Shown: positions 13,270 to 37,642, counted from the first letter of the stretch. The stretch: 64,000 nt of DNA from Candidatus Alkanophaga liquidiphilum (GCA_029259535.1 JAPHEF010000001.1:21399-85398); one strand, 5' to 3'. Program-made: numbers and translations. Notes: generated from the sequence alone by a model not told the origin.

Positions 13270-13308
13270 TTTTACAAAATGTCGCTAAGAAAGCTTATGG
13301 TTTTAACC
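13270..13308. repeat. Intergenic motif copy A (ttttacaaaatgtcgctaagaaagcttatggttttaacc)
   Basis: This copy lies between the CaCA gene end and the helicase-nuclease start. It is 33/39 identical to copy C. Confidence 0.5.
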
Positions 13309-13428
13309 ATGAGATGGTGGGGGTCACACGTCCCCAAAAAGAGTTTCTTGTTTCAAATTAATGTGTTAATTTCACCGCTTTTCTGCTGCTTTTCTGTTGG
13401 CAGCAAGGCAACTTGGTGACGCGTCAAA

Positions 13429-14355
13429 TCAAAACAGGACGTAATTGATGCAGATGAAGATGGCGTAAGTGGCTACAAGGGCGATGCCTTCGAGCCTGCT
13501 CAGCTCATGCTTAGTTCGGATGAAAATCAGGAGCAAAACGGCTGTGAAAAGCATCATGGGAATATTCCAGAAGAAAAGAGCGGTATCAACGCCAAGCGGG
13601 CGTATCAGGCTTGAAAGCCCGACCACTAATGCAGCGTTGAACGTGTTGCTGCCGAGGATGTTCCCGATGGAGATGCCGCCATGCCGTTTCACCGCTGCGT
13701 TTACTGAGACTGCGAGTTCGGGCGCGGAGGTTCCGAAGGCGACAAGCGTGCTGCCTATTACCGACTCAAGAATGTTGAAGGATACGGCAATGCTTACCGC
13801 AGAATCCACTAAAAGTTTTGCTCCCAAAAAGATGCCAAAACCCCCTAAACAAAGTTTCAAACACACCATCACGCAGTTAAACTCCATGTCTCTATCCCTC
13901 GCTACTACCCCGCCGCCCCCCCGCCGCCTGAGAGTTGCCATGTATAAGAGGAACACCGCGAGAAGGGCGCAGCCATCTAATCTTGAAATGCCTTGGAGAG
14001 ACAACGCCGTAAGCAGCGTAGAGATGCTGAGCATCACAAGCCCGTCTTTCACAACCCCTTCATCCGTCGCAAGCGGGATTATGGCGGCGCAGATGCCGAG
14101 GATGGCGACGTTCGTGATGTTGCTGCCGACAACTGTGCCGACGGCAATCCCGCTGCTGCCGACGGCAGCGGCGTAGAGCGATGTCGCAAGCTCCGGCGCC
14201 GAAGTCCCGAAGGCGACGAGCGTCAGCCCGATGACCATTTCCGAGATATTAAAACGTCTCGCAACCACCGTAGAAGATGCGACGAAGGCGTCCGCCGCCA
14301 GTATCAGCACGAAAAGCCCCACAAAAAGCAGAACGAAAGACACTACGACAGACAT
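13429..14355 (-). CDS. Ca2+/cation antiporter (CaCA family, YrbG-like) membrane protein
   Basis: Two alpha-repeat signatures are present (GSNITNVAILG and GNILGSNTFNAALVVG). About 10 TM helices. Confidence 0.8.
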   Translation of the reverse strand: MSVVVSFVLLFVGLFVLILAADAFVASSTVVARRFNISEMVIGLTLVAFGTSAPELATSLYAAAVGSSGIAVGTVVGSNITNVAILGICAAIIPLATDEGVVKDGLVMLSISTLLTALSLQGISRLDGCALLAVFLLYMATLRRRGGGGVVARDRDMEFNCVMVCLKLCLGGFGIFLGAKLLVDSAVSIAVSFNILESVIGSTLVAFGTSAPELAVSVNAAVKRHGGISIGNILGSNTFNAALVVGLSSLIRPLGVDTALFFWNIPMMLFTAVLLLIFIRTKHELSRLEGIALVATYAIFICINYVLF

Positions 14356-14411
14356 AGCTGTTATTATGACCTACTGGTTAAGCGTAAAGGATTGTGAGTA
14401 GTTCTTTTCCT

Positions 14412-14915
14412 TCAAAGCACCTGCACGCTCTTCACGCCCTTTGTCCTTCTTAATTCCTCTATCAAACGTCCTGGGACTTGCCCGTCTATAATTATTGTGA
14501 GCTTTGGCTCCTCCACGAAATAAGGGTCGTCGCTCACCGCTTGCCGAATGCTAAGCCCGTGTTTAGAGATTACTGTGGTGACCTCGCTGAGTATGCCTTT
14601 ATCCCTTGCATCCTTTGGGTATATTATCACAACGCCAAGATTAAGGAGCGGTGCTATGTTGTCAAGAAGCGGCACAGACCGCAGATTCTCAAACATCCTC
14701 CTCAAAGTATCATCAGCCATTATCGCCTTCACGGTCATGTCAACAACCCTGCGGTCAACACCAGCCTCCTTTGCAACTTGTGAATGCGGTATTCTTATAT
14801 TCCCTGAGGAAATCCGCCCTTCTGCGTCGATACGGAAGCCACGCTCCAGCAGTAAACGAACTACCTTCTTCTGCGACGGCGTCTTTTCAAATTTGCCCAT
14901 TATTTCTCCCCACAT
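14412..14915 (-). CDS. Predicted regulator with N-terminal HTH and C-terminal ACT-like domain (COG2150-like)
   Basis: An N-terminal helix-turn-helix segment (VVRLLLERGFRI) is followed by a ~70 aa ACT-like beta-alpha-beta-beta-alpha-beta tail. Confidence 0.45.
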   Translation of the reverse strand: MWGEIMGKFEKTPSQKKVVRLLLERGFRIDAEGRISSGNIRIPHSQVAKEAGVDRRVVDMTVKAIMADDTLRRMFENLRSVPLLDNIAPLLNLGVVIIYPKDARDKGILSEVTTVISKHGLSIRQAVSDDPYFVEEPKLTIIIDGQVPGRLIEELRRTKGVKSVQVL

Positions 14916-14995
14916 GTTCTCTCGTTTGTTGTAAGGGTTTAATTATTATCACGGTGTTCGGGAGCTATCTTAAATTTCCGAAAAAAAGATTCATT

Positions 14996-16153
14996 ATGAT
15001 TTCCGAAGTCTCAGGCGAAAATTTGAAAAAGCGGTTCGATGATGTTTTAAGGACGACAGTGCGTGTTTTAAGAGATTGCTCCGTCGAAAACGGAGCAATA
15101 GTTGCGGCGAACACAGACATGGACTATTACCCTAAGGACGCGTCGCCTTATAGGTTCGTTTGGATAAGGGACGCAGCTTACGTCTGTGTCGCCGCCGACA
15201 TCCTTGAGGAGCGTGGTGTTGCGAGTTTGAGGATACAGAAGAAGTTTTTTAAGTGGTGTCTTGAAAGACCGCAAAGCTTTTCAGGGGCTTCCGCCGAAAA
15301 CGGCGCCGTGTTCTCGCAGCGATATCACACAAACGGCGTCAGGGAGGGCTGGCAATTGCAGCCCGATCAGACAGGCACGCTGCTCTGGGCGCTCTGGCAT
15401 CACTTCCGCAAAAATCTGGTGCAGGCGCAGGAGTTCGAGACTCTCATAAGGAGGGCGGCAAACGGCATCTGTAAAATCTGGGGCGGCAAACACTTCACCA
15501 CGAGCACTTTCGACCTTTGGGAGGAGCGTGCGACGTTTCCAGACACTAAGGACAACCACACATACTCGCTGGCGGCATGCAGTAAGGGGCTGATGTGCGC
15601 CAGCGAGCTTGCGGAAGGCAGCGGCTACGCAAAGGCGGAAGAGGTTAAAAAATGGAGGAAATGCGCCTTAGAGATGGAGAGCGCGGCATTAGCTTCTTAT
15701 AGCGCCAATGAGGGATATTTTCTAAGGACTTCAGGCTTGCTTGATGATGACACCGTAGATGCGTCGCTGCTCGGCTTAGTTTATCCATTTGAGTTGCTTT
15801 CGGCGGGAGATGAGAGGATGGTCAATACCGTTAGGAAGATGGAAGAAAAAATAGTGCGAGGCGGCGGCGTTTACAGATACGAAAAAGATTTTTACGACGG
15901 CTGGGTGCGAGATGGCAGCCTTAGGTCCAAAGGGGCGGGAGCGTGGCCCCTCTTGAATTTCTGGATGAGCATTTATTATTCCGTAAAAGGAGATGCTGTG
16001 AGCGCAGAGAAATATTATACGTGGGTCCTACGGCGTGTTGACGGATACATACCTGAGCAGATATTTGAAAATGAGCTGCAAAAATCGGTGTATCCACTGG
16101 CGTGGGCGCATGCGATGTTCGTTCTCGCCTCTCACTTCTTGACTCTGCTGTGA
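14996..16153 (+). CDS. Glycoside hydrolase family 15 (glucoamylase-type) catalytic-domain protein
   Basis: GAIVAANTDMDYYPKDASPYRFVWIRDAAY matches the GH15 G-x-I-x-A-x...Y-x-Y-x-W-x-RD motif. The start was moved to ATG 14996 (MISEVSG) because the longer ORF from 14651 overlaps the opposite-strand regulator. Confidence 0.65.
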   Translation: MISEVSGENLKKRFDDVLRTTVRVLRDCSVENGAIVAANTDMDYYPKDASPYRFVWIRDAAYVCVAADILEERGVASLRIQKKFFKWCLERPQSFSGASAENGAVFSQRYHTNGVREGWQLQPDQTGTLLWALWHHFRKNLVQAQEFETLIRRAANGICKIWGGKHFTTSTFDLWEERATFPDTKDNHTYSLAACSKGLMCASELAEGSGYAKAEEVKKWRKCALEMESAALASYSANEGYFLRTSGLLDDDTVDASLLGLVYPFELLSAGDERMVNTVRKMEEKIVRGGGVYRYEKDFYDGWVRDGSLRSKGAGAWPLLNFWMSIYYSVKGDAVSAEKYYTWVLRRVDGYIPEQIFENELQKSVYPLAWAHAMFVLASHFLTLL

Positions 16154-17784
16154 CTTCTCTTTTTCCTCTCTTCTTCAATCCGCTCCTGAAGCACGTTTCC
16201 GTAGAGGATGTCGTCTGACCGCAGCACGATGAGCGCCGCCTCGTAAGCACCCTTTATCACCATTTCCTTCAGCCTCAGCGACTCTAAGATGCCGACTTCC
16301 ACGACGTCTCGTATTTCCCTCCCTCTCGCATCGTAGCCATAGTTCACATTACCGTTTGCGTGTTCTTTTCTCAGCTCAAGCAGGACGGAAAGCGGGTCTC
16401 TGCCGCTGTTCCTTGCAAGTATCTTTGGGATGGCTTCGAGGGCATCGGCGAATGCGAGGATGGCGAGCTGCCGCTTCGTGGCGTCGGACATTGCGAACTT
16501 CCGAAGACGTAACGCAAGCTCGACCTCGACGGCGCCGCCGCCGGGCAGAGCCTTCTTATTCAACGCTTTCGCCACCGCATATAAGCCATCGTTCACCGCC
16601 CTTGCAAAGTCGGAGAGCGTGTGCTGCGCACCGCCTCGCAGGAAAATCGTGACGCTTTTCGGGTTTGTGCCTTTTATGAAGACGAAGGTAGATTTGTCTG
16701 GAAACTTGACCTCCTCGACCCATTCCGCATACCCAAGATCGTTCTCGCTTATCTCGCTTACGTTCGTCACGATTCTTGCGTTCACAGCTTTCGCAATCCT
16801 CTCGAGTATTTGCCCAGTGGGGACGGCTTGGATTGCGACCATGCCGATTTTCAATAGCATCCTGCCGAGGCGCTTGTCTATGAGACGTCTTGAAATTATG
16901 ACATCGGCGCCTGCCCCTCTTATTCTCTCGACCTTCTCCCTGAGGATTTCACGCTCGTATTCCGCTTGCAGAAGCATGTCTTCAAGGCTTTTCACTCTTG
17001 TGGAGTAGAGATAATGAGAGGCGAACATGCCTTCTTCGGGCTTGACCGTAAGTGGAGCGTCAATAACCGCCACCCGGACATTTTCCACTCTTTTTGGCAT
17101 GTCCTCATGTAAGAAGCTTTTTTCGACGATTATACCTCTGAAGAGTGTAGTGGAAGCTGCTTCTTTACCACTTTTCCTTGCGATGTGCACGTCTTCGGGA
17201 TTTGCTTCCTTTTTCCCGCCGTCACTTATGATTTTCACTGCTTCTACAACGACTCTGGAAAGTTCCTCTGCCACTTCCAAGTATTTTGTGTCGATGGCTG
17301 TTCTCGCAACCTTGTAGAGAATTTCGTCGGTCGCCTCGAATGCTAACTCCTCCAAGATTTCCAGAGCTTTGTCCACAGCCATTTTGTAACCGTCGGCGAT
17401 GATGTTTGGATGTAATCCTACACCAACGAGTTTCCTTGCCTCGTTAAGAAGTTCGCCGGCGAGGACGACCGTCGTTGTCGTGCCGTCGCCAGCGTCGTAG
17501 TCCTGCGTCTTTGAAAGCTCTCTGAAAAGGATGGCGACGGGGTGCTTCGCTTTGAACTGCATGAGGTCAAAGCGTTGCATTATCGTTTTCCCGTCGCTGC
17601 TTATTATGAAATTGCGACCTTCGTCCTCGACAAGCATTTTTTGCAAACTCCGAGGTCCGAGCGTCGAAGCCAAGAAGTCAGAAAGCTCCTTCGCAACGAC
17701 AAAAGAGCTCTCACGCAGCTCCTCCGCGTGAATCCTCTCCGGCTCGCCCTGCAGGACTTTCAGCGGCAACTTGACTGGCTCCAT
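16132..17784 (-). CDS. ths: Thermosome (group II chaperonin) subunit
   Basis: GPRSLQKMLV is conserved. The ATP-binding motif GDGTTT is present. Length is ~550 aa. The start was set at ATG 17784 (MEPVKL); the ORF-track start is an upstream GTG at 17802. Confidence 0.9.
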   Translation of the reverse strand: MEPVKLPLKVLQGEPERIHAEELRESSFVVAKELSDFLASTLGPRSLQKMLVEDEGRNFIISSDGKTIMQRFDLMQFKAKHPVAILFRELSKTQDYDAGDGTTTTVVLAGELLNEARKLVGVGLHPNIIADGYKMAVDKALEILEELAFEATDEILYKVARTAIDTKYLEVAEELSRVVVEAVKIISDGGKKEANPEDVHIARKSGKEAASTTLFRGIIVEKSFLHEDMPKRVENVRVAVIDAPLTVKPEEGMFASHYLYSTRVKSLEDMLLQAEYEREILREKVERIRGAGADVIISRRLIDKRLGRMLLKIGMVAIQAVPTGQILERIAKAVNARIVTNVSEISENDLGYAEWVEEVKFPDKSTFVFIKGTNPKSVTIFLRGGAQHTLSDFARAVNDGLYAVAKALNKKALPGGGAVEVELALRLRKFAMSDATKRQLAILAFADALEAIPKILARNSGRDPLSVLLELRKEHANGNVNYGYDARGREIRDVVEVGILESLRLKEMVIKGAYEAALIVLRSDDILYGNVLQERIEEERKKRSHSRVKK

Positions 17785-17804
17785 CCGTTTTAAATTTCGC
17801 ACGT

Positions 17805-17816
17805 CGACTTATATGC
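17805..17816 (-). promoter_or_regulatory. Putative TATA box for thermosome gene (minus strand ATATAAG)
   Basis: On the minus strand the sequence reads GCATATAAGTCG, about 25-30 nt upstream of the ATG. This is consistent with an archaeal, near-leaderless promoter. Confidence 0.25.
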
Positions 17817-17918
17817 GTTGCGGTCCGCTGCAAACGGTTGATTCTCGCAACGCCACGGCGTCGCCTTACGCCTTAGCGGTATGACGAGTAAAAAATAAAA
17901 CCCAAAGGCTAGGTAGGG

Positions 17919-18296
17919 CTATGCACCCAGGATTTGGGACTCGCCGCCGGTGGCGATGCCAAGAGCTTCTCTTATCTGCTGCTGGAGCTGCTGGAAGCGT
18001 TTTTGCATCCGCTCTTCTTGCCGCTCAAGCGTCTTGAGTCGGAGGTCATAGGTCTCTTTCTTATCCGTCAAGTCCTCTTTCACCTCAGCCTTGCTCGCTT
18101 TTATCATGAGTTCGCCGACATTTCGGTAGATGATGGCATCATCGCTGAGCTTTTCTAACTCGTCCAGCGCGAACTCCACATCCTTGAGCATCGCCTCTAC
18201 CTGCATTTTCTGCCTCGCTATGGCTTGTAATTGCATCTGGAGCTGCTGGAGCTGCATCAGTTGATTTTGCACTTGCGGGGGCAATTCTGCGCTCAT
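17919..18296 (-). CDS. pfdB: Prefoldin beta subunit
   Basis: The 125 aa coiled-coil protein (QLMQLQQLQMQLQAI...) has the prefoldin-beta length and heptad pattern. It is adjacent to the thermosome gene. Confidence 0.8.
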   Translation of the reverse strand: MSAELPPQVQNQLMQLQQLQMQLQAIARQKMQVEAMLKDVEFALDELEKLSDDAIIYRNVGELMIKASKAEVKEDLTDKKETYDLRLKTLERQEERMQKRFQQLQQQIREALGIATGGESQILGA

Positions 18297-18424
18297 AACA
18301 ACTCTCCTACGCGGTTACACAGCTCCTTGCTTTGACAAGGAGCCTCTGACCAAAGGAATGCCTCCGTGATATATAAGGTTTGCGAGACGGCGCTGTGCAT
18401 TTCTAATGGCAAGACTTCATTATT

Positions 18425-19123
18425 TTGATGCGGCTGGGGGCGTTGTTCAGCTCGGGGAAAGATAGCACGCTCGCATTATACGAGGCGATGCGGCGGCGGG
18501 GCTATGAGGTAAAATGCCTTATCACTGTGGAGAGCGAGAATCCATACTCCTTCATGTTCCATACGCCGAATGTGCATCTTACGAGGTTGCAGGCTGAGGC
18601 GATGCGGCTGCCCCTCGTCGTAAGGGCAACCGTCGGTAGGGAAGAAGAAGAGCTTGAGGATTTGCGAGATGCGGTGCGAGCAGCTGTTGAAAACTTCGGG
18701 ATTGAAGGCGTGGTTGCGGGCGCTGTCCTTTCGAGTTATCAAAGGAAGCGGATTGAGGAAATATGTGAAGAGCTGTCTCTTGAAGCAGTTCTTCCTCTGT
18801 GGGGGAGAGACCAAAAAGAGCTGCTTGCGACCTTGCTCGATGAGGGTTTTGAAGTGATATTCACGGCGGTTGCCGCATACGGCTTCGACAAGAGTTGGCT
18901 CGGTGCGAGACTTGACGAGGAGCGGGTGCGGCGGCTTCTCGCCCTCAACGCCAAATATGGAGTGAGCATAGTCGGGGAGGGCGGAGAGTTCGAGACTCTC
19001 GTTCTCGATGCCCCGCCGTTCGAAAAGCGTCTCAAGATACTCGAATTTGAAATTCTTGAGGAAGGTGCGCACGCCGCAAGGCTCGTCGTCAAGAAAGCAA
19101 CATTGGTAGAAAGCCGTAGTTAG
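18425..19123 (+). CDS. dph6: PP-loop ATPase of the MJ0570/Dph6 (diphthine-ammonia ligase) family
   Basis: The N-terminal PP-loop ALFSSGKDS matches the SGGKDS type. Length is ~230 aa. Confidence 0.65.
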   Translation: MMRLGALFSSGKDSTLALYEAMRRRGYEVKCLITVESENPYSFMFHTPNVHLTRLQAEAMRLPLVVRATVGREEEELEDLRDAVRAAVENFGIEGVVAGAVLSSYQRKRIEEICEELSLEAVLPLWGRDQKELLATLLDEGFEVIFTAVAAYGFDKSWLGARLDEERVRRLLALNAKYGVSIVGEGGEFETLVLDAPPFEKRLKILEFEILEEGAHAARLVVKKATLVESRS

Positions 19124-19236
19124 CCGACGCCGTTAGAGCAAAGCTCTACAGCCGCTCCAGCTTTGCTTATTCCCGCCATTACCCACGCCCCCGCGACCAG
19201 GCTGCTCCACTCACCGCAGCATCGCTTATGCCGCCG

Positions 19237-19950
19237 CTACGCCAAGCCAACGGTTTCACAAGCTTTAACGATGTCCTTGCCCTCGATGAATACAAAACCG
19301 TGTTCAGCGGCGTAGGCTTTTGCGTCCTTTTTCGAGAGCGCCATGCCCGTGCTGGCATCAAGCATCTCACAAATCACCATCGCAGGCGTGACGCCCGCAA
19401 GCATCGCAAGCGCAACCGAAAGCTCGGTCTGCCCCTGCCGCTCTTTTACGAGGCGGTCTGCGGACCTTAAGATCGCAACGTGCCCTGGCGTCCTGAACTC
19501 CGCACTGAAGTCGTAGCGCTCGCCATTTAAGACGCTACGCACTGCCTCCCCTATCTTCCTAATAGTCAAAGCTCGGTCTCTATCGGTTATGCCCGTAAAC
19601 GTCGCTCTGTGGTTGACCCAGAGTGAAAACGAAGATCGTTTATCGTAGGGGACATCGCCCTCGCGCTCCACGAGCCGTTTCACCGCCAAAAACCTTTCAC
19701 CCACGCTACCCAACACGTCGCTCACAAAAGGAAGTCCCAGTCTCTCAGCGGCGCCGCCGTGAATCGCCACGCAGACCAATCCTCCACCGTCCCTGCGGAG
19801 GCGTGCCACATCGGCGGGCATCGTCGCCAGTGCCGGCAGCGCAAGATCGGTCTCGCCCTCGCGGTCGTCGGCGTCGTATATCAGCACCATCCTGCCCTCT
19901 CTTATGCTCTCGACAGCTGCCTTTACCACCTCAGGCAACCTCTTTGACAT
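19237..19950 (-). CDS. ribB: 3,4-dihydroxy-2-butanone 4-phosphate synthase
   Basis: LIYDADDREGETDLAL matches the RibB signature (D.REnEGDL). The start was set at ATG 19950 (MSKRLPE), which has a GGAGGT RBS 10 nt upstream. The longer ORF to 19989 is an alternative. Confidence 0.8.
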   Translation of the reverse strand: MSKRLPEVVKAAVESIREGRMVLIYDADDREGETDLALPALATMPADVARLRRDGGGLVCVAIHGGAAERLGLPFVSDVLGSVGERFLAVKRLVEREGDVPYDKRSSFSLWVNHRATFTGITDRDRALTIRKIGEAVRSVLNGERYDFSAEFRTPGHVAILRSADRLVKERQGQTELSVALAMLAGVTPAMVICEMLDASTGMALSKKDAKAYAAEHGFVFIEGKDIVKACETVGLA

Positions 19951-20000
19951 TTTACGTCTTACCTCCCACATGCCCTCTCCTTTTTCCATGCTTAACCCGC

Positions 20001-20687
20001 TCAGCTTAACATAATCTTCACTCGCAGCTCGTCGCCGTCTTCGAGTCCGAGTTTCTCCCTGAGATTGACTGGCGAGATGATTTCGACGACGTTATCGGGG
20101 TAGTGCGTCCGCTCAGGAATGACCACTGCGCACTGCACGCCGTCGCAGCCGTCCCGTAGAATCTCGCAGAAGAAGCACTTGCTGCCGCCAAACGTCCTGC
20201 CCTCAGCGGTGAAGCTCTCGATTTTTATCCCACTTCTGGCGTCGAGCCGCCGCCGCAGCACGACGCTCCCGTCCCTTAACAGCAAATTGAGCGTCCCGGG
20301 GTAGGGGACGAAGCCCAGCTTCTCCCTGAACTGCCGCACGTAGCCCTCCCGGGAGACGTAGTAGCGCCCCTCGCCCAGACCCGAAACCACGCTGCCAACA
20401 AGCTCCACACTCTCGTTGCCCTCCATCCCTGAGAATATCCTTTGATATTCTTCAAATTCGCTCTTCAAAAGGTCTATACCTTTTTCCGTCACAACGATCC
20501 ACTGCCCGTCGGCTACAATATCTCTACGTATTAGCCCTTCCCTTTCAAGCTCTTGTAATCTTCGTGAAGCGGTCTGCATGCTCGTCTCAAGCACCTTTGC
20601 GAACTCTGCCGATGAGATTTTCAGCGGGCGCTCCATGGCGCCGAGGAGCGCTAATTTCCTCAACGCTGCCGTCTTCCCCTCACCCAT
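20001..20687 (-). CDS. ribK: Archaeal CTP-dependent riboflavin kinase with N-terminal HTH
   Basis: An N-terminal winged HTH is followed by an MJ0056-type RibK domain (GYVPYPGTLNL, ERTHYPDNVVEI). Adjacent to ribB. Confidence 0.8.
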   Translation of the reverse strand: MGEGKTAALRKLALLGAMERPLKISSAEFAKVLETSMQTASRRLQELEREGLIRRDIVADGQWIVVTEKGIDLLKSEFEEYQRIFSGMEGNESVELVGSVVSGLGEGRYYVSREGYVRQFREKLGFVPYPGTLNLLLRDGSVVLRRRLDARSGIKIESFTAEGRTFGGSKCFFCEILRDGCDGVQCAVVIPERTHYPDNVVEIISPVNLREKLGLEDGDELRVKIMLS

Positions 20688-20777
20688 GGCCCCATCTCAG
20701 ATTTGAGATATATCCCAATTTTGGGGACTAATATTTAAAGCTTACTCTTTGAACTGGTTACCGCCGAGGCGTAACAT

Positions 20778-22007: not shown

Positions 22008-22037
22008 AATAACATAAGAGTCAAATATGATAAGAAT

Positions 22038-22802: not shown

Positions 22803-22895
22803 TCTGACGAAAGAGCCGTCGTCAAAATAAGCGCCGAGCCCTTTAATTCGAACTCAAAAGAGATAAATACGAGAGTTACGTCCTCATTATCGCAG

Positions 22896-24575
22896 ATGCC
22901 CGGGCGTGCAGAAGAGATTTGGATTGAGAAATACCGCCCTAAGACGCTCGACGAGATTGTAGGGCAGGAGGAAATCGTCAGAAACCTCAAGTCCTACGTT
23001 AAAGCGGGAAACATGCCGCATCTCATCTTTTCAGGACCCGCAGGCGTCGGGAAGACGGCAGCGGCAGTAGCGCTCGCCAGGGAGTTTTTCGGCGACGCCT
23101 ACGAAGAGAACTTCACCGAATTAAATGCATCGGTGACGCCTGAGACCGTCTTAGTGCTGCGTGCCGGCGGCAATATAACGAGTTTGAGTTTCAAGGAGCT
23201 TGACAAGCTGATTTTTGGAGATGACAAGGAAGAAGAATATGCAATATTACAAGGGGTCGAAGTCCTCTCGGTGGCAGATTACAAAATCAAATTCATGCCC
23301 GTCTCGGCGGTTGCAAGGCACAAAGCCGAACGTATTTTGAGAATAAAGCACGAGGGCGGGGAAATAAGCGTCACCCCTGACCATTCTTTAATCGTAATCA
23401 CTGAGAGCGGAGCTCTCGCTTCAAAACCCGCCGCAGAAGTGGAAACTGGCTCGTTTCTGATCTCCTTCTGCGATGGCGGCGGCAAGCTCCCCGCAGAACC
23501 CCTCTTGAATTTCCTCAGGAACGCAAACGCTGTAAGTTGGCATTTGAGCAACGTATGCAGCGCCGCCGACACCATTGAGAAATCGAAGATGTTGGGTGCC
23601 ATTAGGTCGGTTAACGCTAAGGAACTACACGAGGGAGAACAAAAGACCTTTGAGACGCTTAGGAAGCTTGCAAGCTCTAAGCTTCACGTCTTAAAAGTCA
23701 AGGACGTGAAAGAGATGAGCTACGACGGCTGGGTTTACGACGTGGGCGTCCCACGCACCGAGATGTTTTGGGGTTTCGCCGCTAACGGCAGAGTCACGTC
23801 TGTGATGGCGCCGCCCGTTTTGCTGCATAATTCAGACGAACGGGGCATAGATGTCGTGCGCAACAACATAAAGAATTTTGCGAGGATGATGGCCGTCGGC
23901 GGGAAGTTTAAGATAATTTTCCTTGACGAGGCTGACGCTCTCACCGACGCCGCCCAGTCCGCCTTAAGAAGGACGATGGAGCGCTACTCCGCAACGTGCA
24001 GGTTCATCTTCAGCTGCAACTACTCTTCAAAGATAATAGAGCCGATACAGTCGAGGTGCGCAGTTTATCGATTCAAGGCACTCCCCTATGACGCCATAAA
24101 GAAAAGGCTTCTCTACATTGCAAAGCAGGAACGCCTTAAGATTTCGGAGGAGGTCATAAAGGCGATATATGACGTTGCGGGTGGCGACATGCGACGAGCG
24201 ATAAATGCGCTGCAGAGCGCCGCCGCAGTGAGCAAGGAAATAACGCCAGAAATCATATACAATATCACGGCGACGCCGAGTCCCGAGGTGGTGGAGGCGC
24301 TGATAAGAAAAGCGTTATATGAAGATTTCTTTGAAGCTCTTGAGATGCTTAACACGCTTCTGGACGAGAAGGGCGTGGCGCCCGACGAGTTGCTTACACA
24401 GATGCATAAAACACTTTTGAATATGGAAATACCACCCGAAAAGAAGGTTTATTTGATAGACAGGATAGGAGAAGTGGATTTTAGGATTGCGGAGGGGGCG
24501 AACGAGCGAATTCAGCTTGAGGGGCTGCTCGCATTCTTTCACCTTTATGGAGGGCAGCGAGCTGGGGGCGTTTGA
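22896..24575 (+). CDS. rfcS: Replication factor C small subunit containing an in-frame intein
   Basis: The exteins give the canonical RFC small subunit. Walker A GPAGVGKT precedes ELNA|(intein)|SDERGIDVVR. The downstream RFC boxes follow (DEAD-like FLDEAD, SRC). Extein length is ~325 aa. Confidence 0.85.
   Translation: MPGRAEEIWIEKYRPKTLDEIVGQEEIVRNLKSYVKAGNMPHLIFSGPAGVGKTAAAVALAREFFGDAYEENFTELNASVTPETVLVLRAGGNITSLSFKELDKLIFGDDKEEEYAILQGVEVLSVADYKIKFMPVSAVARHKAERILRIKHEGGEISVTPDHSLIVITESGALASKPAAEVETGSFLISFCDGGGKLPAEPLLNFLRNANAVSWHLSNVCSAADTIEKSKMLGAIRSVNAKELHEGEQKTFETLRKLASSKLHVLKVKDVKEMSYDGWVYDVGVPRTEMFWGFAANGRVTSVMAPPVLLHNSDERGIDVVRNNIKNFARMMAVGGKFKIIFLDEADALTDAAQSALRRTMERYSATCRFIFSCNYSSKIIEPIQSRCAVYRFKALPYDAIKKRLLYIAKQERLKISEEVIKAIYDVAGGDMRRAINALQSAAAVSKEITPEIIYNITATPSPEVVEALIRKALYEDFFEALEMLNTLLDEKGVAPDELLTQMHKTLLNMEIPPEKKVYLIDRIGEVDFRIAEGANERIQLEGLLAFFHLYGGQRAGGV
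23130..23831 (+). other. Intein (~234 aa) inserted in RFC small subunit between ELNA and SDERGID
   Basis: The intein begins with Ser (block A SVTPETVLVL) and has block B TPDH. It ends ...VLLHN followed by the Ser +1 extein residue. No clear LAGLIDADG motif was seen. Confidence 0.7.
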
Positions 24576-27432: not shown

Positions 27433-27441
27433 AAGACCCCC

Positions 27442-28170: not shown

Positions 28171-28213
28171 TCAAAAGGTTTATTTAAAATTAAATCATTT
28201 TAGAGTTTGGTGG

Positions 28214-28618: not shown

Positions 28619-28647
28619 TTTTTTACTTTTTCTCATCTCGTTGCATC

Positions 28648-29085
28648 ATGCCGAGGCAGAAACAAAGAAGACGCAAAGGCAAACGGAATTACCTCGTTTA
28701 CAAGGAGCTTGAGTTTATAGTCGAGGAGATGAATCGTGAAGTAGATGCAGTTATCGTCGAGGGTTCTCACGACAGGACGGCGTTGGAGTTGCTGGGTTTC
28801 AGAAAAGACATGCTCTTGTATTCAGAGTCGAAGCTCTCGGATGGCGACTTCGTCGAGCTCGTCAGCCAGAAGTATGAGCGTGTTGTCATCCTCACCGATT
28901 ACGACAGAGACGGAAAAAGCTTTAACAAAAAACTTTCAGAACGCCTCCAGAGGCGTGGAGTCTGCATCGAGCGCACATATCGAGATAAAATAGGCAAATT
29001 GCTGGGACAGTGCGGCATCAAGGACATAGAATCAATATCCGCACTCAAAAAGCGAGTTTTCGACTTTTGCTACGAGATGCCTTAA
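28648..29085 (+). CDS. Small Toprim-domain protein (COG1658-like, RNase M5/primase-like Toprim)
   Basis: VIVEGSHDRTAL (the E in the first motif) and ILTDYDRDGK (DxD) match Toprim catalytic motifs. Confidence 0.65.
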   Translation: MPRQKQRRRKGKRNYLVYKELEFIVEEMNREVDAVIVEGSHDRTALELLGFRKDMLLYSESKLSDGDFVELVSQKYERVVILTDYDRDGKSFNKKLSERLQRRGVCIERTYRDKIGKLLGQCGIKDIESISALKKRVFDFCYEMP

Positions 29086-29102
29086 ATCTTAACAACAAAT
29101 GC

Positions 29103-29130
29103 TTACAGAATGTCGCTAAGAAAGCTCATA
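29103..29130. repeat. Intergenic motif copy B (ttacagaatgtcgctaagaaagctcata)
   Basis: This copy lies in the convergent gap after the Toprim gene. It shares aatgtcgctaagaaagct with copy A. Confidence 0.5.
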
Positions 29131-29133
29131 CCT

Positions 29134-29505
29134 TTAGGGTTGAGATAGGGGAGGGAGTTTGGGAGTTGAGTTTTTATATTGCCCGTAATCCGCAGTTGTT
29201 TCTATTTCTGCTATAAACACATTAGAGGCATCTTCGTGCTTCATAAAGGCGATATTTGGCGGTCCTGGCGGCTCCTCGCTGGTGCCAAAGTAATATATGA
29301 GGTGCCCTTCTACCTCTTCTGCGCCACTTGCCTCTAAGGTATATGCCGTGATGGTTATTGTTGTACCGCCGTCCACATCTGCAGTAACCATGTAGATGTC
29401 TTCTTTTGGGTCTATGGGCGTTGGCTTCTCAGCCATCGCTGACGAGAGCAGAAGCGGGAGTAGCAACCCCAGCACTAACAACGTTACGGACGCATCCCTA
29501 CTCAC
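29134..29505 (-). CDS. Hypothetical secreted protein (signal peptide)
   Basis: The N-terminal LLVLGLLLPLLLSSAMA resembles a signal peptide. No recognisable domain was found. Confidence 0.35.
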   Translation of the reverse strand: MSRDASVTLLVLGLLLPLLLSSAMAEKPTPIDPKEDIYMVTADVDGGTTITITAYTLEASGAEEVEGHLIYYFGTSEEPPGPPNIAFMKHEDASNVFIAEIETTADYGQYKNSTPKLPPLSQP

Positions 29506-29602
29506 AGTGCTCCCTCCTCTTCTTGATGCCGCATGGGGGGATTTCCCCTTTGGAATTCAACTCCAAGTGCATAAAAATGAATCCAAAATCGAAAACAAAT
29601 TT

Positions 29603-31519: not shown

Positions 31520-31550
31520 CGCAACTTAATAATATGACTTATGGGAGACC

Positions 31551-32876
31551 ATGTTCGGACTTTTAGAGCGGGCGTTGGAAACGGCACTGAAGGATTGTGA
31601 GCAGGCTGAAATTTATGCGGAGCGAAGCAGAGTTCTGAGCATTGATTTTGAAAAAGGTAAAGTGAAGCGGGGGAAAGTCGGCGAGAACCTAGGGATTGGT
31701 ATCAGAGTGGTGCTTTCAAAAAAGGTGGGGTTCTCTTATACAACATCGGCAGAGCGTCTTGAGGAGTGCATTGCCGCCGCCATAAGGCAGGCGAAAGCTT
31801 CCGAGACTGATGAAGCATTTGAGGGTTTGCCACAGCCTTCGAGGGGCTACTCGACTCCGGAGAGGACATTTGATGAGGCGGTAGTTGCGTTAAGCGCTGG
31901 AGCGGCTGTGGAGCTTTGCGAGAGCATGATTTCAGCGGCGTTAGAAAAAGGCGTGAAGACGGTGGAAGGCGGTTTCTCTGCGGGTTACGATGAAGTTTTT
32001 GTGCTGAGCTCCGAGGGTGTGAAAACGCAAGACAGGGCGACCTTTGTCTCTGGTAGTTTGACGGCGATTGCGAGTTCAGCGGGCGGTGAGGAGGTTGCGG
32101 CGTGGGAAGGCACGGTGTCGCATTTTCTGCAGGATTTCGACGCGGAATTCGTCGGGCGGGAGGCGGCGAGCGTCGCAGTCGCAAGCCTGGGCGGCGAGCG
32201 TTGCGAGACGAGGAAGATGCCAGTAGTGCTGACGCCGAAATCGCTGCAAAGCCTCCTGCCTTACACAACGATTGCGCAATTGAACGCTGAAAATGTGCAG
32301 AAGAAACAGTCTCCCTACTACAAAAAAAAGAACGAGAGTATTGCAAGTGAAATTTTAACCATCTTGGACGACGGCACGCTCCCTGGAGGCTTGAACACGA
32401 GAAAGATGGACGGCGAGGGTATCGCCTCGCAGAAAACCATGCTTGTGGAGTGCGGCGTCCTTAAAAATTTTCTCTACGACTCATATACGGCAACAAAAGA
32501 CAACGTGGAGAGCACGGGGAACGCCGTTCGCAGCTACGACACGCTGCCAAGGGTCGGCGCCACGAACTTCGTGCTGACTGCTGAAGAGCTTTTGAAAAAG
32601 GAAGAGTTGCTTGGAGAGATCAAGGAGGGTTTGCTCGTCCACGACCTCATCGGTGCACACACGGCATCACGGGCATCTGGCGAGTTTTCAGTGGTCGCAT
32701 ACAATGCCTTCATCGTCCGCAGGGGTGAACTCCGTCCTGCTAAGAACGTCATGCTCGCCGGCGCCTCCACCGAAATTTTAAAGAACGTCGTGGCGCTCGC
32801 CGATGATGTCCGGCAGCTCGGCAGCGTCGTCTCACCGTCAATCCTCGTCAAAAACATACAAGTGGTCTCGGCGTAG
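31551..32876 (+). CDS. TldD/PmbA-family (peptidase U62) protein
   Basis: The 441 aa protein has the family length and the conserved C-terminal Gly-rich region (GEFSVVAYNAFIVRRGE). Confidence 0.7.
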   Translation: MFGLLERALETALKDCEQAEIYAERSRVLSIDFEKGKVKRGKVGENLGIGIRVVLSKKVGFSYTTSAERLEECIAAAIRQAKASETDEAFEGLPQPSRGYSTPERTFDEAVVALSAGAAVELCESMISAALEKGVKTVEGGFSAGYDEVFVLSSEGVKTQDRATFVSGSLTAIASSAGGEEVAAWEGTVSHFLQDFDAEFVGREAASVAVASLGGERCETRKMPVVLTPKSLQSLLPYTTIAQLNAENVQKKQSPYYKKKNESIASEILTILDDGTLPGGLNTRKMDGEGIASQKTMLVECGVLKNFLYDSYTATKDNVESTGNAVRSYDTLPRVGATNFVLTAEELLKKEELLGEIKEGLLVHDLIGAHTASRASGEFSVVAYNAFIVRRGELRPAKNVMLAGASTEILKNVVALADDVRQLGSVVSPSILVKNIQVVSA

Positions 32877-32879
32877 CTC

Positions 32880-33150
32880 GACGTGACAGTGCCGTATCAG
32901 AGTGGCTAAGCGAGGGGCATGGAGGCACGAGCATGGTCATTAGCGGGTTCCACAAAGAGACTTCTATCCCGCTTTGCGCATTAAGATGTGTTAGATTGAG
33001 ACTACCGGTCAAGGCTAGTCGTCCCTTTTACGGCGTGGGAGAATCCTTGACCTCCACAGGAATGCTCACGGGGACGACCCTTAAAAACAAAGCTCTCGGA
33101 TTTTAGACATTATTGGTAAGTAGTAATGATTTAAAGAGGGGCATCCGAAC
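32880..33150. ncRNA. Candidate structured non-coding RNA (unclassified) in 280-nt ORF-free gap
   Basis: Several 6-8 bp complementary segments are present. They include AGCGGG/CCCGCT (32942-32947 / 32969-32974). They also include GGTCAAGG/CCTTGACC (33007-33014 / 33044-33051) and GTCGTCCC/GGGACGAC (33017-33024 / 33070-33077), which interleave in a pseudoknot-like order. No RNase P or SRP hallmark motifs were recognised. Confidence 0.2.
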
Positions 33151-33183
33151 AGTAAGTTGCACAGTGCGCAGGACGGGTCTGCG

Positions 33184-34698
33184 ATGAAAGAAGAACATAA
33201 ATATCTTCTCATAATTGCAGTGGTATTCGCTCTGGTTATCGGAGGGATTCTTTCTGTGCCGTATGACCCACAAGCAGACATTGTTGATGCGGTTTCAATT
33301 GATACATGGGCGCACCTATATATTGACGGTATATACAAGATGCCCCTATATGAGTTTCTGGAAAAGTATCCTAGAGCGTTACAGAGCGGTGTGATCGAAG
33401 AAGACGGCGAGTATTATGTTGTGACGGAGAAGGGAATTGGTTATGTTTTATTCTACGCATTGATGATAGCATTGGGCATTCAACGATTTACGGGGACAAT
33501 TCTCGCTTTGATTGCCGTAGTATCTACCTACATCCTTTCAAGAAGGCTTTTTGGCGTGAGATGTGCTGCGTTATCCACCATACTGCTTCTTACGACAGGA
33601 ATTGCGATGATTATGACTTATCGTTATGCATGGGTCGATTACGGGACGATGGCGTTCCTTGTGCTTTCAATCTGCCTCTTTATAGAGGGTGTTGCTCGAA
33701 AGAGTTCGGTGCTATGTCTTTTGTCGGGGTCTGTCTTCTCTGTGGCTGTATCGACCCGCTACCCGGTGGGGCTGCTCGTTGTTCTCCCATTTGTTTACCT
33801 ACTGGTAAAAGAGGCTCCAAGGATGAAGCTTATAGTGGCATTCTGTATCGGGCTTTTAATACTCTTAACACCTCTCCTGTGGTATAACACCATTACCTAT
33901 GGTGGCCCTTTCAAGTCGGGCTATGATGTTCGCCGTCTTGGCGACTTCGTGCGTGGTGAACATGAAATTGAGTTGGGAGAGGGGGAGGGGGCGTCAAAAT
34001 ACTGGAGCATCGAAGGTGCGGTTGATAATCTTACAGACGTTCCGCAGATGTTTCTTATCGCAATGCCAGTCTTTTATCTAGCGTTTTTCGGGCTTTACAG
34101 GTCTTATAAGGATAATAAAGCTGGGTTTTACCTTTTATTTTCCTGGATAACACTTACAATGATTCTTTACTTCCCGATGGGGCATCTTGGAGGTGTGGGG
34201 TTACAAGCACTTCAGCAAGTGCGGTATTTCCTCCCGATGCTTCCAGCACTCTGCATCTTCGGGGCAAATGCACTTTCAGGTCTTTTTTCAAAGGGAAAAT
34301 ATGGAGGAATTCTTGTGGCGGCTCTGCTGATAATATTGGCTGGAGTAGGTGTCTCTGCAACAATATGGAATATGCATACATGGGATGCGACTGGAAGGTT
34401 TAAAGAGATTGACGTAGACCTTAAATCCCTATATGAGAACCCATCAGCCTTTAACAACGGGATCGTCACCTTAAGGCACTTGATCGTGATTAAATATGTG
34501 AGAGGTGGCTTAATCGTAAAAGATTCTACCACATTCGAGGATATGCTTCTTTGTTTCCCCAGACCACCTCCACAGAGCGTGAAGGAGCTTGATAGAATCA
34601 CAGGTAAGTTCATCTGGAAGGATCGAAATCAGAATGGGAGTATGGAGAGAGGAGAAGGTGTTATTATGGTAAAGGAGATTCGCTGGGTGCTCCCATGA
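33184..34698 (+). CDS. Polytopic membrane protein, GT-C-type glycosyltransferase-like (ArnT/PMT-like), putative
   Basis: About 11 TM helices in the N-terminal two-thirds, with a soluble C-terminal domain. The architecture is like ArnT/PMT-type membrane glycosyltransferases. No diagnostic catalytic motif was verified. Confidence 0.4.
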   Translation: MKEEHKYLLIIAVVFALVIGGILSVPYDPQADIVDAVSIDTWAHLYIDGIYKMPLYEFLEKYPRALQSGVIEEDGEYYVVTEKGIGYVLFYALMIALGIQRFTGTILALIAVVSTYILSRRLFGVRCAALSTILLLTTGIAMIMTYRYAWVDYGTMAFLVLSICLFIEGVARKSSVLCLLSGSVFSVAVSTRYPVGLLVVLPFVYLLVKEAPRMKLIVAFCIGLLILLTPLLWYNTITYGGPFKSGYDVRRLGDFVRGEHEIELGEGEGASKYWSIEGAVDNLTDVPQMFLIAMPVFYLAFFGLYRSYKDNKAGFYLLFSWITLTMILYFPMGHLGGVGLQALQQVRYFLPMLPALCIFGANALSGLFSKGKYGGILVAALLIILAGVGVSATIWNMHTWDATGRFKEIDVDLKSLYENPSAFNNGIVTLRHLIVIKYVRGGLIVKDSTTFEDMLLCFPRPPPQSVKELDRITGKFIWKDRNQNGSMERGEGVIMVKEIRWVLP

Positions 34699-34699
34699 T

Positions 34700-34738
34700 T
34701 TTTACAAGATTTCGGCGAGAAAGCTTATGGTTTGAACC
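34700..34738. repeat. Intergenic motif copy C (ttttacaagatttcggcgagaaagcttatggtttgaacc)
   Basis: This copy lies immediately 3' of the GT-C gene stop, in a convergent gap before valS. Confidence 0.5.
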
Positions 34739-34916
34739 GAATCGCCGTTAGGTTTATATATTGTTTGCAATTTTGTTATTAGCGAGGCTGCGGGTATATC
34801 CTGCAGTCAGGGGCTGCGGTGAGCCAGCCCCGTCGTGAAGCTCGGCTCCGGAGCGGTGCTCCTCAAGGAGTCTGGGCGGAGAGGCGTGAAGCTCCCGGCT
34901 TTAGCCGTGGAGTAGC

Positions 34917-37586
34917 TCACCTCTTCCGTTCCACGACCACGACGGTGCCGTTCCCCCCAGGACTGCTTACCTCAAGGATGTCCACAGCCTTGCCGCTCAA
35001 CATGAAGCTCCGTTCAACCTCGACACACTCGTCATCGAGTTCGAGGGGCTCGCCGCCGACGGTGATGACGAATTTCCCGTGTTTTTGCAGTTGTTCGTCC
35101 ACGATTTTGGGGTCTGCTTGCGCCAGGGCTTTGAGCAGGTCTTTGGTCTTTGCCCTGAATCTCGGACCGATGATGTTGGGCTTCGGAACCACTCGCACAG
35201 GCAGAAGCTCAGCCTTTACCGACGCTCGCTTAAGCTCGATTTCAGCAACTGTAACGCTTGCAAGGTCGTCCAGCTCGCTCTTATCAATAACATCACTGTA
35301 AAGCTCAAGCCGCCCGAGTGGAGCGTTCAGTGGCATGCCCCTTTCCGCCTTGTATTTCCGAACGGCGGCGGCGACGGCATTCAGCACGTCGCCTTTGCGT
35401 TCGGCGTCGTCGTCGTAGAGCAGCGGCGATGGCCACCTCTCAAGATGCACGCTCCGCCGCCCCTTATCTTGAGTAACTCTTGAATACATTTCCTCCGCAA
35501 AGAACGGCGTGAACGGCGCAAGCAAGATGGAGACTGTCTTCAGCGTGATGTAGAGCGCCGTCCTTGCGGAGTTTCTGGCGACGTCTCCGAAACGCCCGTA
35601 GAGCCGAGCCTTCACAAGTTCAATGTAGCTGTCGGCGAGGACGCCCCAGCAGAACGTTCTGATGCGCCGCATCGCCTCGTCGAACTTGAAGGCATCCATG
35701 CACTCGGTGACGTCGGCAACGAGCTTGCTGAGCTTCACGAGCAGCCACCTGTCAACGGTGCGCAGCGTCTTAACGTCGTCCTCAGGCGGCGTGAAGTCTT
35801 CAAGGTGCGGCAGCGAGAACCGCAGGATGCTCCAAAGCTTCTGCAGGAAGCGGCGGGCAGCGACCACGTCCTTCCAGCGGAACTGCACGTCGCTACCGAC
35901 GGCGCCACCGATTGCTGCCCACTGCCTGAAGGCGTCGGCGCCGTATTTCTCAATAACCTCCTCAGGCGCCACGATGTTGTTTCTCGATTTGCTCATCTTG
36001 TAGCCGTCCTCGCCGAGAACCATGCCGTTTATGACTATCGTCTCCCAGGGCATCTCGTTGGTGAGGAGAAGGGTCCTTAGAATCGTGTAGAACGCCCACG
36101 TTCGTATGATGTCGTGCCCTTGCGGGCGGAGCGCTGTTGGCTTGAACTTGCTGCTGTTGCTATCATCGCCATTGCCTGCCCAAGGGCGCCAGCCGCCGAC
36201 CCAAAGCGCCGTCACGGAGGAGTCCATCCAAGTGTCGAGCACGTCCGTCTCGCCTTCGAACTCTGTGGAGCCACAGCGTTCACAAGCGACACGAGGCGGA
36301 TGCTCTAACGGGTCAATAGGGAGTTCTTCGTAGCTCGCCACGACGACATTACCGCATTTCTTGCAATACCAGATTGGGATGGGCGTTGCGAAGATGCGTT
36401 GCCGTGAGATGCACCAATCCCACTCCAGCGACTCCGCCCAGTTTTTCAGACGCAAGAAGAAGTGCTCAGGCACCCACCTCACACGCCTCGCGGCATCTAC
36501 GACGCGCTCGCTATCTACCTTCAAAAACCACTGCTCCGTGGAAAGGATTTCAATGGGTGTCTTGCAACGCCAGCAGACGCCGACGCTCTGCTGAAGCCGC
36601 TCCTGCTTCGTGAGCAAGCCGTGCGCCCGCAAGTCCTCTATGATCTGGCAGCGAGCCTCCTCCACGCTTAGCCCCTTGTATTCACCCGCGAGCTCTGTCA
36701 TTTTTCCTTGCTCGTCTATGGAGCGGCGTAGCGGAAGCTCATGCTCTTTCCACCAGCGGACGTCCTGCCTGTCGCCGAACGTGCAAATCATCACGACGCC
36801 CGTTCCAAAGGAGGGGTCTACGCTCTCGTCTGCGAAAATGCGGACGACTTGCGAGAATATCGGCACCTCCACCTCCTTGCCCACCAAAGCTCTATATCGT
36901 TCGTCATTGGGGTGGACAGCAACGGCGACACAACTTGGTAGAAGCTCAGGACGCGTAGTCGCAATCTCTACGTAGTTGCCGTCTAAAAGCTTAAATTTCA
37001 AGTAATTCAAAAAAGTCTCCCTATCATCATATTCAACCTCTGCAAATGCAATTGCGGTCTCACAGCGGGGGCACCAGTTCACAGGGTGCTCTGTTTTATA
37101 AATAAGCCCTTCTTTGAACAGCTTGACGAATGTGTGCTGCACGAACTTTTTGTAGTAGTCTTCCATAGTGATGTATTCTTGGCTCCAGTCGATGCTCATG
37201 CCAAGCCGTCGCATCGTCTCCTTCATCTTTTTGATGTTTTCGAGCGTGAGCTCTCGGCATAGCCGCCGGAACTCCGCACGGGAGACCTGATTTTTTGTGA
37301 TGCCGTGCCGCTCCTCAACTTTAACCTCAGTCGGCAGCCCGTGGCAATCCCAGCCTTGCGGAAACATGACGTTGTAGCCTCGCATCCTCTTGTAGCGGGC
37401 TATGAAATCAATATAACACCAATTCAACGCATTCCCGATGTGAAAATCGCCCGTCGGGTAGGGCGGCGGGGTATCTATGATATAAGGCTCCGCCTCCGAC
37501 GTGCGGTCGAAATAATAAATAGAGTCATCCCAACGCTCCAACCACTTCTTCTCAATTTCTCCATGCTCGTATTCCTTCTTTAGCAT
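34917..37586 (-). CDS. valS: Class I aminoacyl-tRNA synthetase of the Val/Ile/Leu family, most consistent with valyl-tRNA synthetase
   Basis: HIGH-type motif is [13 protein letters not shown]; KMSKS is present ([10 protein letters not shown]). [10 protein letters not shown] is present. The 889 aa length fits archaeal ValRS better than IleRS or LeuRS. Confidence 0.65.
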
Positions 37587-37620
37587 CGTTCCTCCCTTGC
37601 GTTTTTAAGTGTTGCTCCTT

Positions 37621-37642
37621 ATAAGAATGTCGCTTAGCGAGC
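37621..37642. repeat. Intergenic motif copy D (partial; ataagaatgtcgcttagcgagc)
   Basis: This copy lies in the valS/thiDN divergent intergenic region. It shares agaatgtcgct-agc with copies A and B. Confidence 0.35.

Follow-up and report, generated by a model that had tools for sequence, protein, structure and literature searches.

What kind of DNA recurs between the genes of a 64,000-nt stretch of Candidatus (Ca.) Alkanophaga liquidiphilum (GCA_029259535.1 JAPHEF010000001.1:21399-85398; its full length is called the window here)? The organism is a thermophilic alkane oxidiser from the Guaymas Basin (PMC10322722), and a sequence-only reading of this stretch had described four intergenic copies of a motif of about 35 nucleotides (nt), named A, B, C and D, for which it favoured a terminator-associated element or a small RNA, with a binding site or a dispersed miniature repeat as further options. 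Our analysis leads us, with high confidence, to identify the motif as the left end (LE) of an insertion sequence (IS) of the IS200/IS605 family, and the copies in the window as relics devoid of a transposase gene. Elements of this family carry a Y1/HUH transposase gene, tnpA, with or without an RNA-guided nuclease gene, tnpB. Loci from other assemblies are labelled L0xx throughout.

A repeat search of the window yielded three real copies, all on the + strand and all belonging to one 60-nt family, at 13264-13323 (A), 29095-29154 (B) and 34694-34753 (C). They are present as described before at 13270-13308, 29103-29130 and 34700-34738, the repeat itself being longer than had been supposed. The reported identity of 33/39 positions between A and C was reproduced on realignment, and the conservation is indeed beyond chance: the 18-mer AATGTCGCTAAGAAAGCT common to A and B has two occurrences in the window where 0.05 are expected, and the 19-mer AAAGCTTATGGTTT[T/G]AACC, common to A and C with one mismatch, has an expectation of 0.03. 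A profile built from A, B and C detected no further significant copy across the 64-kb window; the scores of the three copies against this profile are not evidence, since it was built from those same copies.

The fourth proposed copy, D (37621-37642), does not belong to the family. Its E value with the three-copy profile is 6.8, it matches A at 23/60 positions in register, and TTAC, AAAG and a hairpin are all missing from it; a reading of D as a decayed LE was rejected. Its core, CTTATAAGRRTGTCG, is also found at the orthologous valyl-tRNA synthetase (ValRS) promoter of the sister species (L056), and D is ordinary conserved ValRS promoter DNA with a chance 11-nt resemblance to the motif; the divergent-promoter context attributed to the family must go along with it. 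Adjoining this segment, an exact tandem duplication (GCACATTAAGTTAC x2) occupies 37643-37670 (+) in the divergent ValRS/ThiDN promoter region.

For the remaining copies the gene contexts had been read correctly. B and C each separate two convergent gene ends, and A has the 3' end of a Na/Ca exchanger gene (13429-14355) on one side and the start of a helicase-nuclease gene on the other. The exchanger shares 100% of its residues with a protein of "Candidatus Alkanophagales archaeon MCA70_species_2" and 99% with the copy that is annotated as Ca. Alkanophaga liquidiphilum. A Pfam scan found the genes flanking the copies to be functionally unrelated. The left ends themselves, each preceded by a TTAC, were delimited as follows.

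13272-13275, + strand: TTAC target and left cleavage site of copy A, read directly
13276-13323, + strand: LE relic of copy A, with AAAG at 13290-13293 and the hairpin CTTATGGT/ACCATGAG at 13294-13313
29103-29106, + strand: TTAC target and left cleavage site of copy B, read directly
29107-29178, + strand: LE and promoter remnant of copy B, with AAAG at 29121-29124, the hairpin at 29125-29144, a G-rich tract and the TATA box TTTTTATA at 29171-29178
34702-34705, + strand: TTAC target and left cleavage site of copy C, at which the empty allele of strain contig L057 reads TTTAC followed by CTCTCC
34706-34752, + strand: LE of copy C, with AAAG at 34720-34723 and a degenerate hairpin at 34724-34743

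Read 5' to 3', the layout is a TTAC flank, 18-19 nt of conserved LE (..ATGTCGCTAAG), AAAG, an imperfect 8-bp hairpin with a TTTA loop, a G-rich tract and an archaeal TATA box. The TTAC stands 3-4 nt ahead of ATGTCGC in A, B and C as well as in 11/13 of the other distinct left-end sequences aligned, and AAAG lies immediately 5' of the hairpin in all copies. Homology among independent copies begins right after TTAC, the upstream flanks being unrelated. The long identical blocks that first drew attention are thereby explained, ATGTCGCTAAG-AAAG as the LE spacer and guide and CTTATGGTTTTAACCATGAG as the hairpin. Beyond the hairpin, homologues continue into ..GAGATGAATTAGGGGAGG.. and then a canonical archaeal box, CGATAAGTTTAAATA. 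The earlier inference that the motif is not a simple promoter was right; GAAAGCTTATGG was considered as a TFB recognition element (BRE)/TATA box and rejected because this canonical box lies further downstream. Placed upstream of the TATA box that belongs to the element, the motif is not included in the transcript predicted for it.

This arrangement corresponds to that of IS608 of Helicobacter pylori, in which TTAC lies 19 nt 5' of the left hairpin, the left guide is AAAG, the right guide is GAAT and the right cleavage site, TCAA, is found 10 nt 3' of the right hairpin (PMC3201880, PMC5934647). The archaeal elements use the same four tetranucleotides in the same places, with the left cleavage site 18-19 nt 5' of the hairpin (19 in IS608), and are likewise inserted 3' of TTAC without target duplication. 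Covariation supports the LE hairpin: over 16 distinct LE sequences it is kept through compensatory changes, with pairing in 92% of cells compared with 35-48% in slid controls, two pairs that switch (A-U/G-C/C-G and A-U/U-A/C-G) and a covariation score reached by 0/500 shuffles. As single-stranded DNA, the hairpins of A and B fold as expected, as does the right-end (RE) hairpin of C with its bulged T. It is this recognition code, TTAC, 18-19 nt, AAAG and a hairpin maintained by compensatory changes, that identifies the motif as an IS200/IS605 LE. Other hallmarks of the family are found as well, namely subterminal imperfect palindromes in place of terminal inverted repeats, insertion 3' of TTAC without a target-site duplication and, judged by sequence concordance, a guide tetranucleotide that would match the cleavage site.

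Three co-oriented direct repeats, together with a slightly lower GC content at ~28-32 kb, could also suggest attachment sites bounding integrated elements at 13.3-29.1 kb and 29.1-34.7 kb. No copy has a tRNA gene, however, and the flanking genes scanned with Pfam have ordinary host functions and include no integrase, which together exclude this explanation for practical purposes. The intervening genes that were checked (prefoldin, thermosome, GH15, exchanger) are moreover syntenic with relatives, and the repeat has an IS608-type end structure.

We scanned degenerate forms of the motif against reference genomes and metagenomes; most matches were due to chance, as were all those in a scan of viral contigs, and true homologues were found only in archaea of a related clade (Alkanophagales, ANME-1 and "Methanosarcinales" metagenome-assembled genomes (MAGs)). 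Their sources are Ca. Alkanophaga volatiphilum, the ANME-1 archaeon Ca. Methanoxibalbensis, an uncultured "Methanosarcinales" MAG, Ca. Wukongarchaeum and hydrothermal metagenomes. The family thus circulates in Syntropharchaeia archaea, that is, in Ca. Alkanophaga, ANME-1 and their relatives. Among 12 independent loci with enough downstream sequence, 11 have IS200/IS605 components downstream of the motif, the solitary copy being that of Wukongarchaeum. The following were found downstream of the motif.

L050: intact tnpA (Y1_Tnp, with HUH and Tyr motifs) and tnpB
L009: frameshifted tnpA and tnpB
L011, L028, L055: tnpB only
L039, L049, L044: C-terminal remnant of tnpB and a right end
L041: a nested IS630, then tnpA
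L048: a 257-nt mini-element
L069: N-terminus of tnpB, at the site of window copy B

In L041 the IS630-type (DDE_3) transposase gene (429-1493) separates the LE motif from the tnpA of the IS605-type element, a case of one IS nested in another; L041 and L047 have their left flank and LE in common and diverge downstream. The last bases of full-length elements are GAAT-CTCCCGAC-TTTA-GTCGtGGAG-AGTG-TCAA, with divergent flanks beyond them, so that their right end reads GAAT-hairpin-AGTGTCAA. GAAT and TCAA occur together in L009, L011, L039, L049 and L050, so the archaeal RE has the guide, the bulged-T hairpin and the cleavage site of IS608, and the autonomous L050 element has the corresponding tnpA (Y1/HUH)-tnpB pair. 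The RE hairpin of C recurs in L009, L039, L049 and L050, with compensatory changes from GAC/GTC to GGC/GCC. In five copies (window C, L072, L048 and two L057 elements) GAAG is paired with TCAC, a matched change at position 4.

The window copies themselves lack such genes, as tblastn found no tnpA or tnpB adjoining A, B or C, and they are accordingly ends or relics of such elements and not autonomous members; TnpA or TnpB is encoded by the homologous elements, with both genes intact in L050 and one or both present in L009, L011, L028, L055 and L069. Within the same species there is an IS605-type element at L057 8689-10400 whose tnpA (166 aa, Y1_Tnp) is intact and whose tnpB, annotated with a 293-aa product that has no TNB-domain match, is probably truncated. 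Its two hairpins, LE and RE, are alike (CCCTTGCG.GCGAGGG), the RE uses GAAG...TCAC, and a further tnpB remnant comes after the element. This element is a possible source of TnpA in trans, although its LE hairpin differs from those of the window copies.

Copy C is the one copy in the window with both ends, and strain comparison fixes its limits.

34706-34920, + strand: copy C, a complete 215-nt non-autonomous mini-element from LE to RE, resembling the palindrome-associated transposable elements (PATEs) of haloarchaea and delimited by the point at which L057 homology stops and by homologues
34753-34760, + strand: archaeal TATA box TTTATATA, ~21 nt upstream of the GC-rich part, a predicted promoter
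34781-34920, + strand: GC-rich structured segment, recognised by its fold, stem covariation and RE-region similarity
34888-34912, + strand: RE, with the guide GAAG at 34888-34891 and the hairpin CTCCCGGC-TTTA-GCCGtGGAG (CTCCCGGCTTTAGCCGTGGAG) with a bulged T at 34892-34912
34913-34920, + strand: TAGC-TCAC after the RE hairpin, the right cleavage site TCAC (34917-34920) being the last 4 nt of the element

The L057 strain contig is 99.5% identical to the window over 34919-41703 and is without element C, its homology stopping exactly at 34919/34920. Its empty site reads TTTAC followed by CTCTCC, compared with TTAC-[element]-CTCTTCC in the window, with no target duplication. In L057 the ValRS gene ends AGG TAA, GTAA being the reverse complement of TTAC, and in the window it ends AGG TGA, the TGA (34917-34919 on the - strand) being supplied by the terminal TCAC of C. 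Mini-elements homologous to C in L072, L048 and L057 all end in TCAC and are followed by unrelated flanks. Searches of the window for further right ends returned no match to AGTCGTGGAGAGTGTCAA at <=3 mismatches, and with GTGGAGNAGCTCAC the sole match was the RE of C.

These comparisons decide against the idea that the motif is a host cis-element, be it a sequence associated with terminators, the gene of a small RNA or a site at which a transcription factor serves the flanking genes. A hairpin between convergent gene ends, as at B and C, is what such a signal might look like. However, the sequence after the hairpin (ATGGTGGGG in A, ATAGGGGAGG in B and GCCGTTAGG in C) has no oligo-T tract, the flanking genes share no function, the motif is absent at orthologous sites in strain L057 and in sister species, and elsewhere it precedes tnpA/tnpB. 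Rfam gave no gathering-level match at any copy and no meaningful family for A or B; a twister-P3 match at copy A (17 bits, E = 0.73) was dismissed as chance. Because the empty-site allele, the unrelated neighbours, the missing T-tract and the link to transposase genes all contradict it, a host cis-element is very improbable. Among the options of the sequence-only reading, the terminator-associated element, small RNA and binding site are therefore not supported, the dispersed miniature repeat came near the truth, and what was named there as a refutation, that the motif corresponds to the ends of a known miniature inverted-repeat transposable element or IS, is what was found. The occurrence of the copies at gene ends probably reflects the tolerance of insertions there and the complementarity of TTAC to G+TAA stop contexts.

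Strain comparisons also indicate that the family has been recently active, as inferred from the empty site, a strain-specific insertion and a recombinant element. The insertion polymorphism is found at window position 41703, where L057 (1-157) has an HgcC-like mini-element (RE CCCCCGACTTTATCGGGGGAGGAGGTCAC; Rfam HgcC, 27.5 bits) and the window has the uninterrupted site, GCTCTTAT directly followed by CTAAATTC. The recombinant is copy C, which shares its left flank with the L072 MAG contig and matches it at 130/130 positions up to 34828 and at 83/98 thereafter, with different right flanks; C is on this pattern best read as a recombinant or gene-conversion product of two copies. The synteny breakpoint between strains coincides with element C, and the C-type elements in L048 and L072 sit in different flanks.

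The structure of C raises a further question, which is whether a relic of this kind has acquired a function. Its TATA box takes the place that the ..AAGTTTAAATA box has ahead of tnpA/tnpB in full-length relatives, and its LE hairpin is enclosed by an alternative stem, CGGCGA/TCGCCG (34714-34719 / 34742-34747). The GC-rich segment has a minimum free energy of -78.9 kcal/mol (z = -3.95 vs shuffles), its first stem is kept via compensatory changes in 5 homologues, with a consensus fold that is convincing for this stem only, and the RE region resembles the tnpB-3'/RE region of L050, L039 and L049 (z = 7.5-13.8). By these resemblances the segment is probably an omega-RNA/HgcC-like RNA. Its match to HgcC (RF00062) reached 16.8 bits (E = 0.089 in a 311-nt search), below the gathering score of 50, and a whole-window Rfam search gave no HgcC match.

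It is conceivable, although we regard it as unlikely, that the relics have been exapted, with C now a stand-alone, promoter-driven guide-RNA (omega-RNA/HgcC-like) gene with a transcript that would pass through the RE and continue antisense to the ValRS 3' end. A TnpB encoded elsewhere might use this RNA in trans, or the RNA might have an antisense or regulatory role, and A and B might lend regulatory or coding sequence to their neighbours. This would fit the consensus TATA box ahead of a strongly folding segment, the compensatory changes in its first stem, the ValRS stop codon supplied by the RE, the C-terminus of the open reading frame (ORF) at 29134-29505 encoded by LE remnant B, and the intact tnpA and probably truncated tnpB in the same species (L057). 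In other archaea, PATE-derived RNAs and HgcC RNAs have been connected with IS1341/tnpB right ends and found to be transcribed (PMC4615843, PMC4247193). On the other side, the HgcC match is far under the gathering score, and the degenerate LE and recombinant nature of C both fit decay rather than selection. An equally tentative and improbable extension would make C and its relatives in L048, L072, L059 and L057 a self-promoted, tnpB-less guide-RNA gene with a 3' guide into the flanking ValRS 3' end. TnpBs encoded elsewhere in this ~70 °C archaeon might then use the RNA in trans, homing non-autonomous elements, or the RNA might regulate ValRS as an antisense transcript. Exaptation would be an addition to the transposon-end explanation, not a substitute for it.

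Copy B represents a second outcome, an LE and TATA stump left after internal deletion, as follows from the presence of tnpB at the same site in a same-species assembly (L069, GCA_053996935.1). The two sequences are identical through the LE to TTTTTATA except for a 1-nt indel (GAGTTGAG in the window, GAGTTGG in L069). Past TTTTTATA, L069 continues into a frameshifted tnpB N-terminus, 47-52% identical to the TnpB of L009; the window has instead the 3' end of an ORF at 29134-29505 (-), of which the last 14 codons (YKNSTPKLPPLSQP) and the stop are encoded by the LE remnant. Alternatively, the L069 sequence is a join through a twin LE; under either reading, a tnpB element with the exact LE variant of copy B exists in the population. 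The product of ORF 29134-29505 is hypothetical, with 123 aa, a signal-peptide-like N-terminus and no Pfam match. At this site contigs of several independent assemblies (L067-L071) end 80-600 nt past the Toprim gene, at or just beyond the LE repeat, which appears to break short-read assemblies.

Copy A is a one-ended, LE-only relic with an uncertain right limit. It lies 16 nt upstream of the helicase-nuclease start codon, in the opposite orientation, and its recognisable LE comprises only ~48 nt; 13318-13432 matches no element in any fetched locus, and no RE, tnpA or tnpB was found downstream. Every A. liquidiphilum assembly seen has the copy. In the sister species (A. volatiphilum and relatives) the downstream neighbour is a different one, and it is exactly at copy A that their synteny with the window ends. 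At these sister-species loci (L058-L063), ~200 nt downstream of the exchanger gene, the corresponding position is occupied by another intergenic region, which has a CNNM/CBS gene and a tiny ORF of very basic composition (MRKHKLKKRRKKMRHKK).

Several points weigh against the identification of the motif as an IS200/IS605 left end or limit its reach. No empty-site allele was found for copy A, and for that reason its right boundary is not fixed. The LE hairpin covariation is based on about four variants among related sequences, and the LE hairpin of C is degenerate. With no tnpA or tnpB beside any window copy and no second RE in the window, the window alone shows no active element, and the copy count covers these 64 kb, the scan of reference genomes having given no hit in the genome of this organism. 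Finally, the archaeal LE and RE hairpins differ in sequence, whereas those of IS608 are nearly identical, and TnpA binding here is a prediction.

Further differences from IS608 are the archaeal host, the archaeal BRE/TATA promoter after the LE, a right cleavage site at 8 nt, in place of 10 nt, from the foot of the hairpin, the GAAG/TCAC pair of a sub-lineage, and the presence in the window of transposase-less relics only. The family is also broader than our search patterns, which missed an LE variant in Ca. Alkanophaga volatiphilum (L059 7533-7750). This variant reads TTAC followed by AGAATGTCGCTACGGAAG-CCCCCCGGTGGGG-AGATGAAGTAGGGGAGG, has an unrelated GC stem between the same flanks, and continues into a TATA box and a C-type GC-rich segment.

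By analogy with IS608, a TnpA dimer would bind the single-stranded LE and RE hairpins, and pairing of AAAG with TTAC and of the right guide with TCAA/TCAC would set the cut positions. The top strand would then leave as a single-strand circle and re-insert 3' of another TTAC without target duplication, TnpB with an RE-derived RNA might bias retention, and the archaeal TATA box after the LE would drive tnpA/tnpB in full-length elements. On this model copy C would be movable only with TnpA supplied in trans, and A and B would be immobile debris.

Among described elements, copy C is close to the haloarchaeal PATEs, which were reported together with "terminal-only" IS605-type remnants (Dyall-Smith et al. 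2011, PMC3119063). Like them it is too short for a transposase, has neither inverted terminal repeats nor a target duplication, shares near-terminal palindromes with IS605-type elements, and probably has a core-deletion origin; the strain-specific insertions of PATEs may have a counterpart in the related mini-element that L057 has at a site empty in the window. Unlike them, it belongs to another archaeal class (a thermophilic alkane oxidiser), is unrelated in sequence and retains more than fused ends, namely a predicted internal promoter and a structured sequence of ~140 nt. Both near-terminal palindromes in an element too short for a transposase are found in C only; A and B, which have an LE without an RE, are not strictly PATEs because one end only is retained, and they are similar to the deletion stumps of the PATE paper.

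The 3' part of C recalls HgcC, which Gomes-Filho et al. 2015 (PMC4615843) connected with IS1341 right ends, and with it the IS1341 sense overlapping transcripts (sotRNAs) and the omega-RNA (reRNA) of TnpB. Common to them are a GC-rich 3' segment, an RE hairpin with a U-rich tetraloop followed by GGAG.AG.TCA, and derivation from the tnpB 3'/RE region. In contrast to HgcC members, window C (16.8 bits) and the L057 element (27.5 bits) stay below the gathering score of 50 and are not members by the Rfam criterion, and unlike an omega-RNA locus, C has no adjacent TnpB, its transcription and guide function being putative. REP/REPIN sequences with RAYT, a TnpA-like protein, are likewise short hairpin-bearing intergenic repeats that derive from IS200/IS605-type ends and are moved in trans by a Y1 transposase. 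The present elements differ from them in that no RAYT-type domesticated gene and no paired inverted REP doublets were seen, the copy number is low and full-length parents are recognisable.

The motif is thus ordinary mobile-DNA debris and not a host regulatory signal, and a candidate "new regulatory motif" gives way to an annotation of three transposon relics with boundaries. Its sequence suggests that the IS608-type end code (TTAC/AAAG, TCAA/GAAT) has remained unchanged in uncultured thermophilic alkane- and methane-oxidising archaea. In Ca. Alkanophaga these elements have recently been altering the genome, as seen in the empty site, the strain-specific insertion, the recombinant at a synteny break and the contigs of several assemblies ending at B, and transposon sequence now forms the ends of two host genes. 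Thermophilic TnpB/omega-RNA pairs might be obtained from the linked full-length copies.

Elsewhere in the window, a probable decayed IS605-type element lies at 41159-41641 (+). It starts with TTAC (41159-41162) followed by AACAGCAGTTAGGCGCTTGC.. and ends with ..GGTTTCAA at 41641, is also found in strain L057, and contains at 41479-41613 a TnpB Zn-finger/RuvC-III remnant (..CRFCEAEG..CCRCGRAYDADFNAAC..; tblastn E = 8e-4) that is the sole tnpA/tnpB match in the window. Three tandem paralogous genes of ~350 aa each (58452-59504, 59547-60605 and 60608-61663) occupy 58449-61663 (+) as repeat units of ~1.06-1.10 kb that are 76-96% identical. A replication factor C-like gene of 559 aa at 22896-24575 (+) has Pfam matches that include an intein splicing domain (L038 gene table), and the Pfam scan also revealed that the window encodes a ThiD-ThiN fusion, an archaeal feature.

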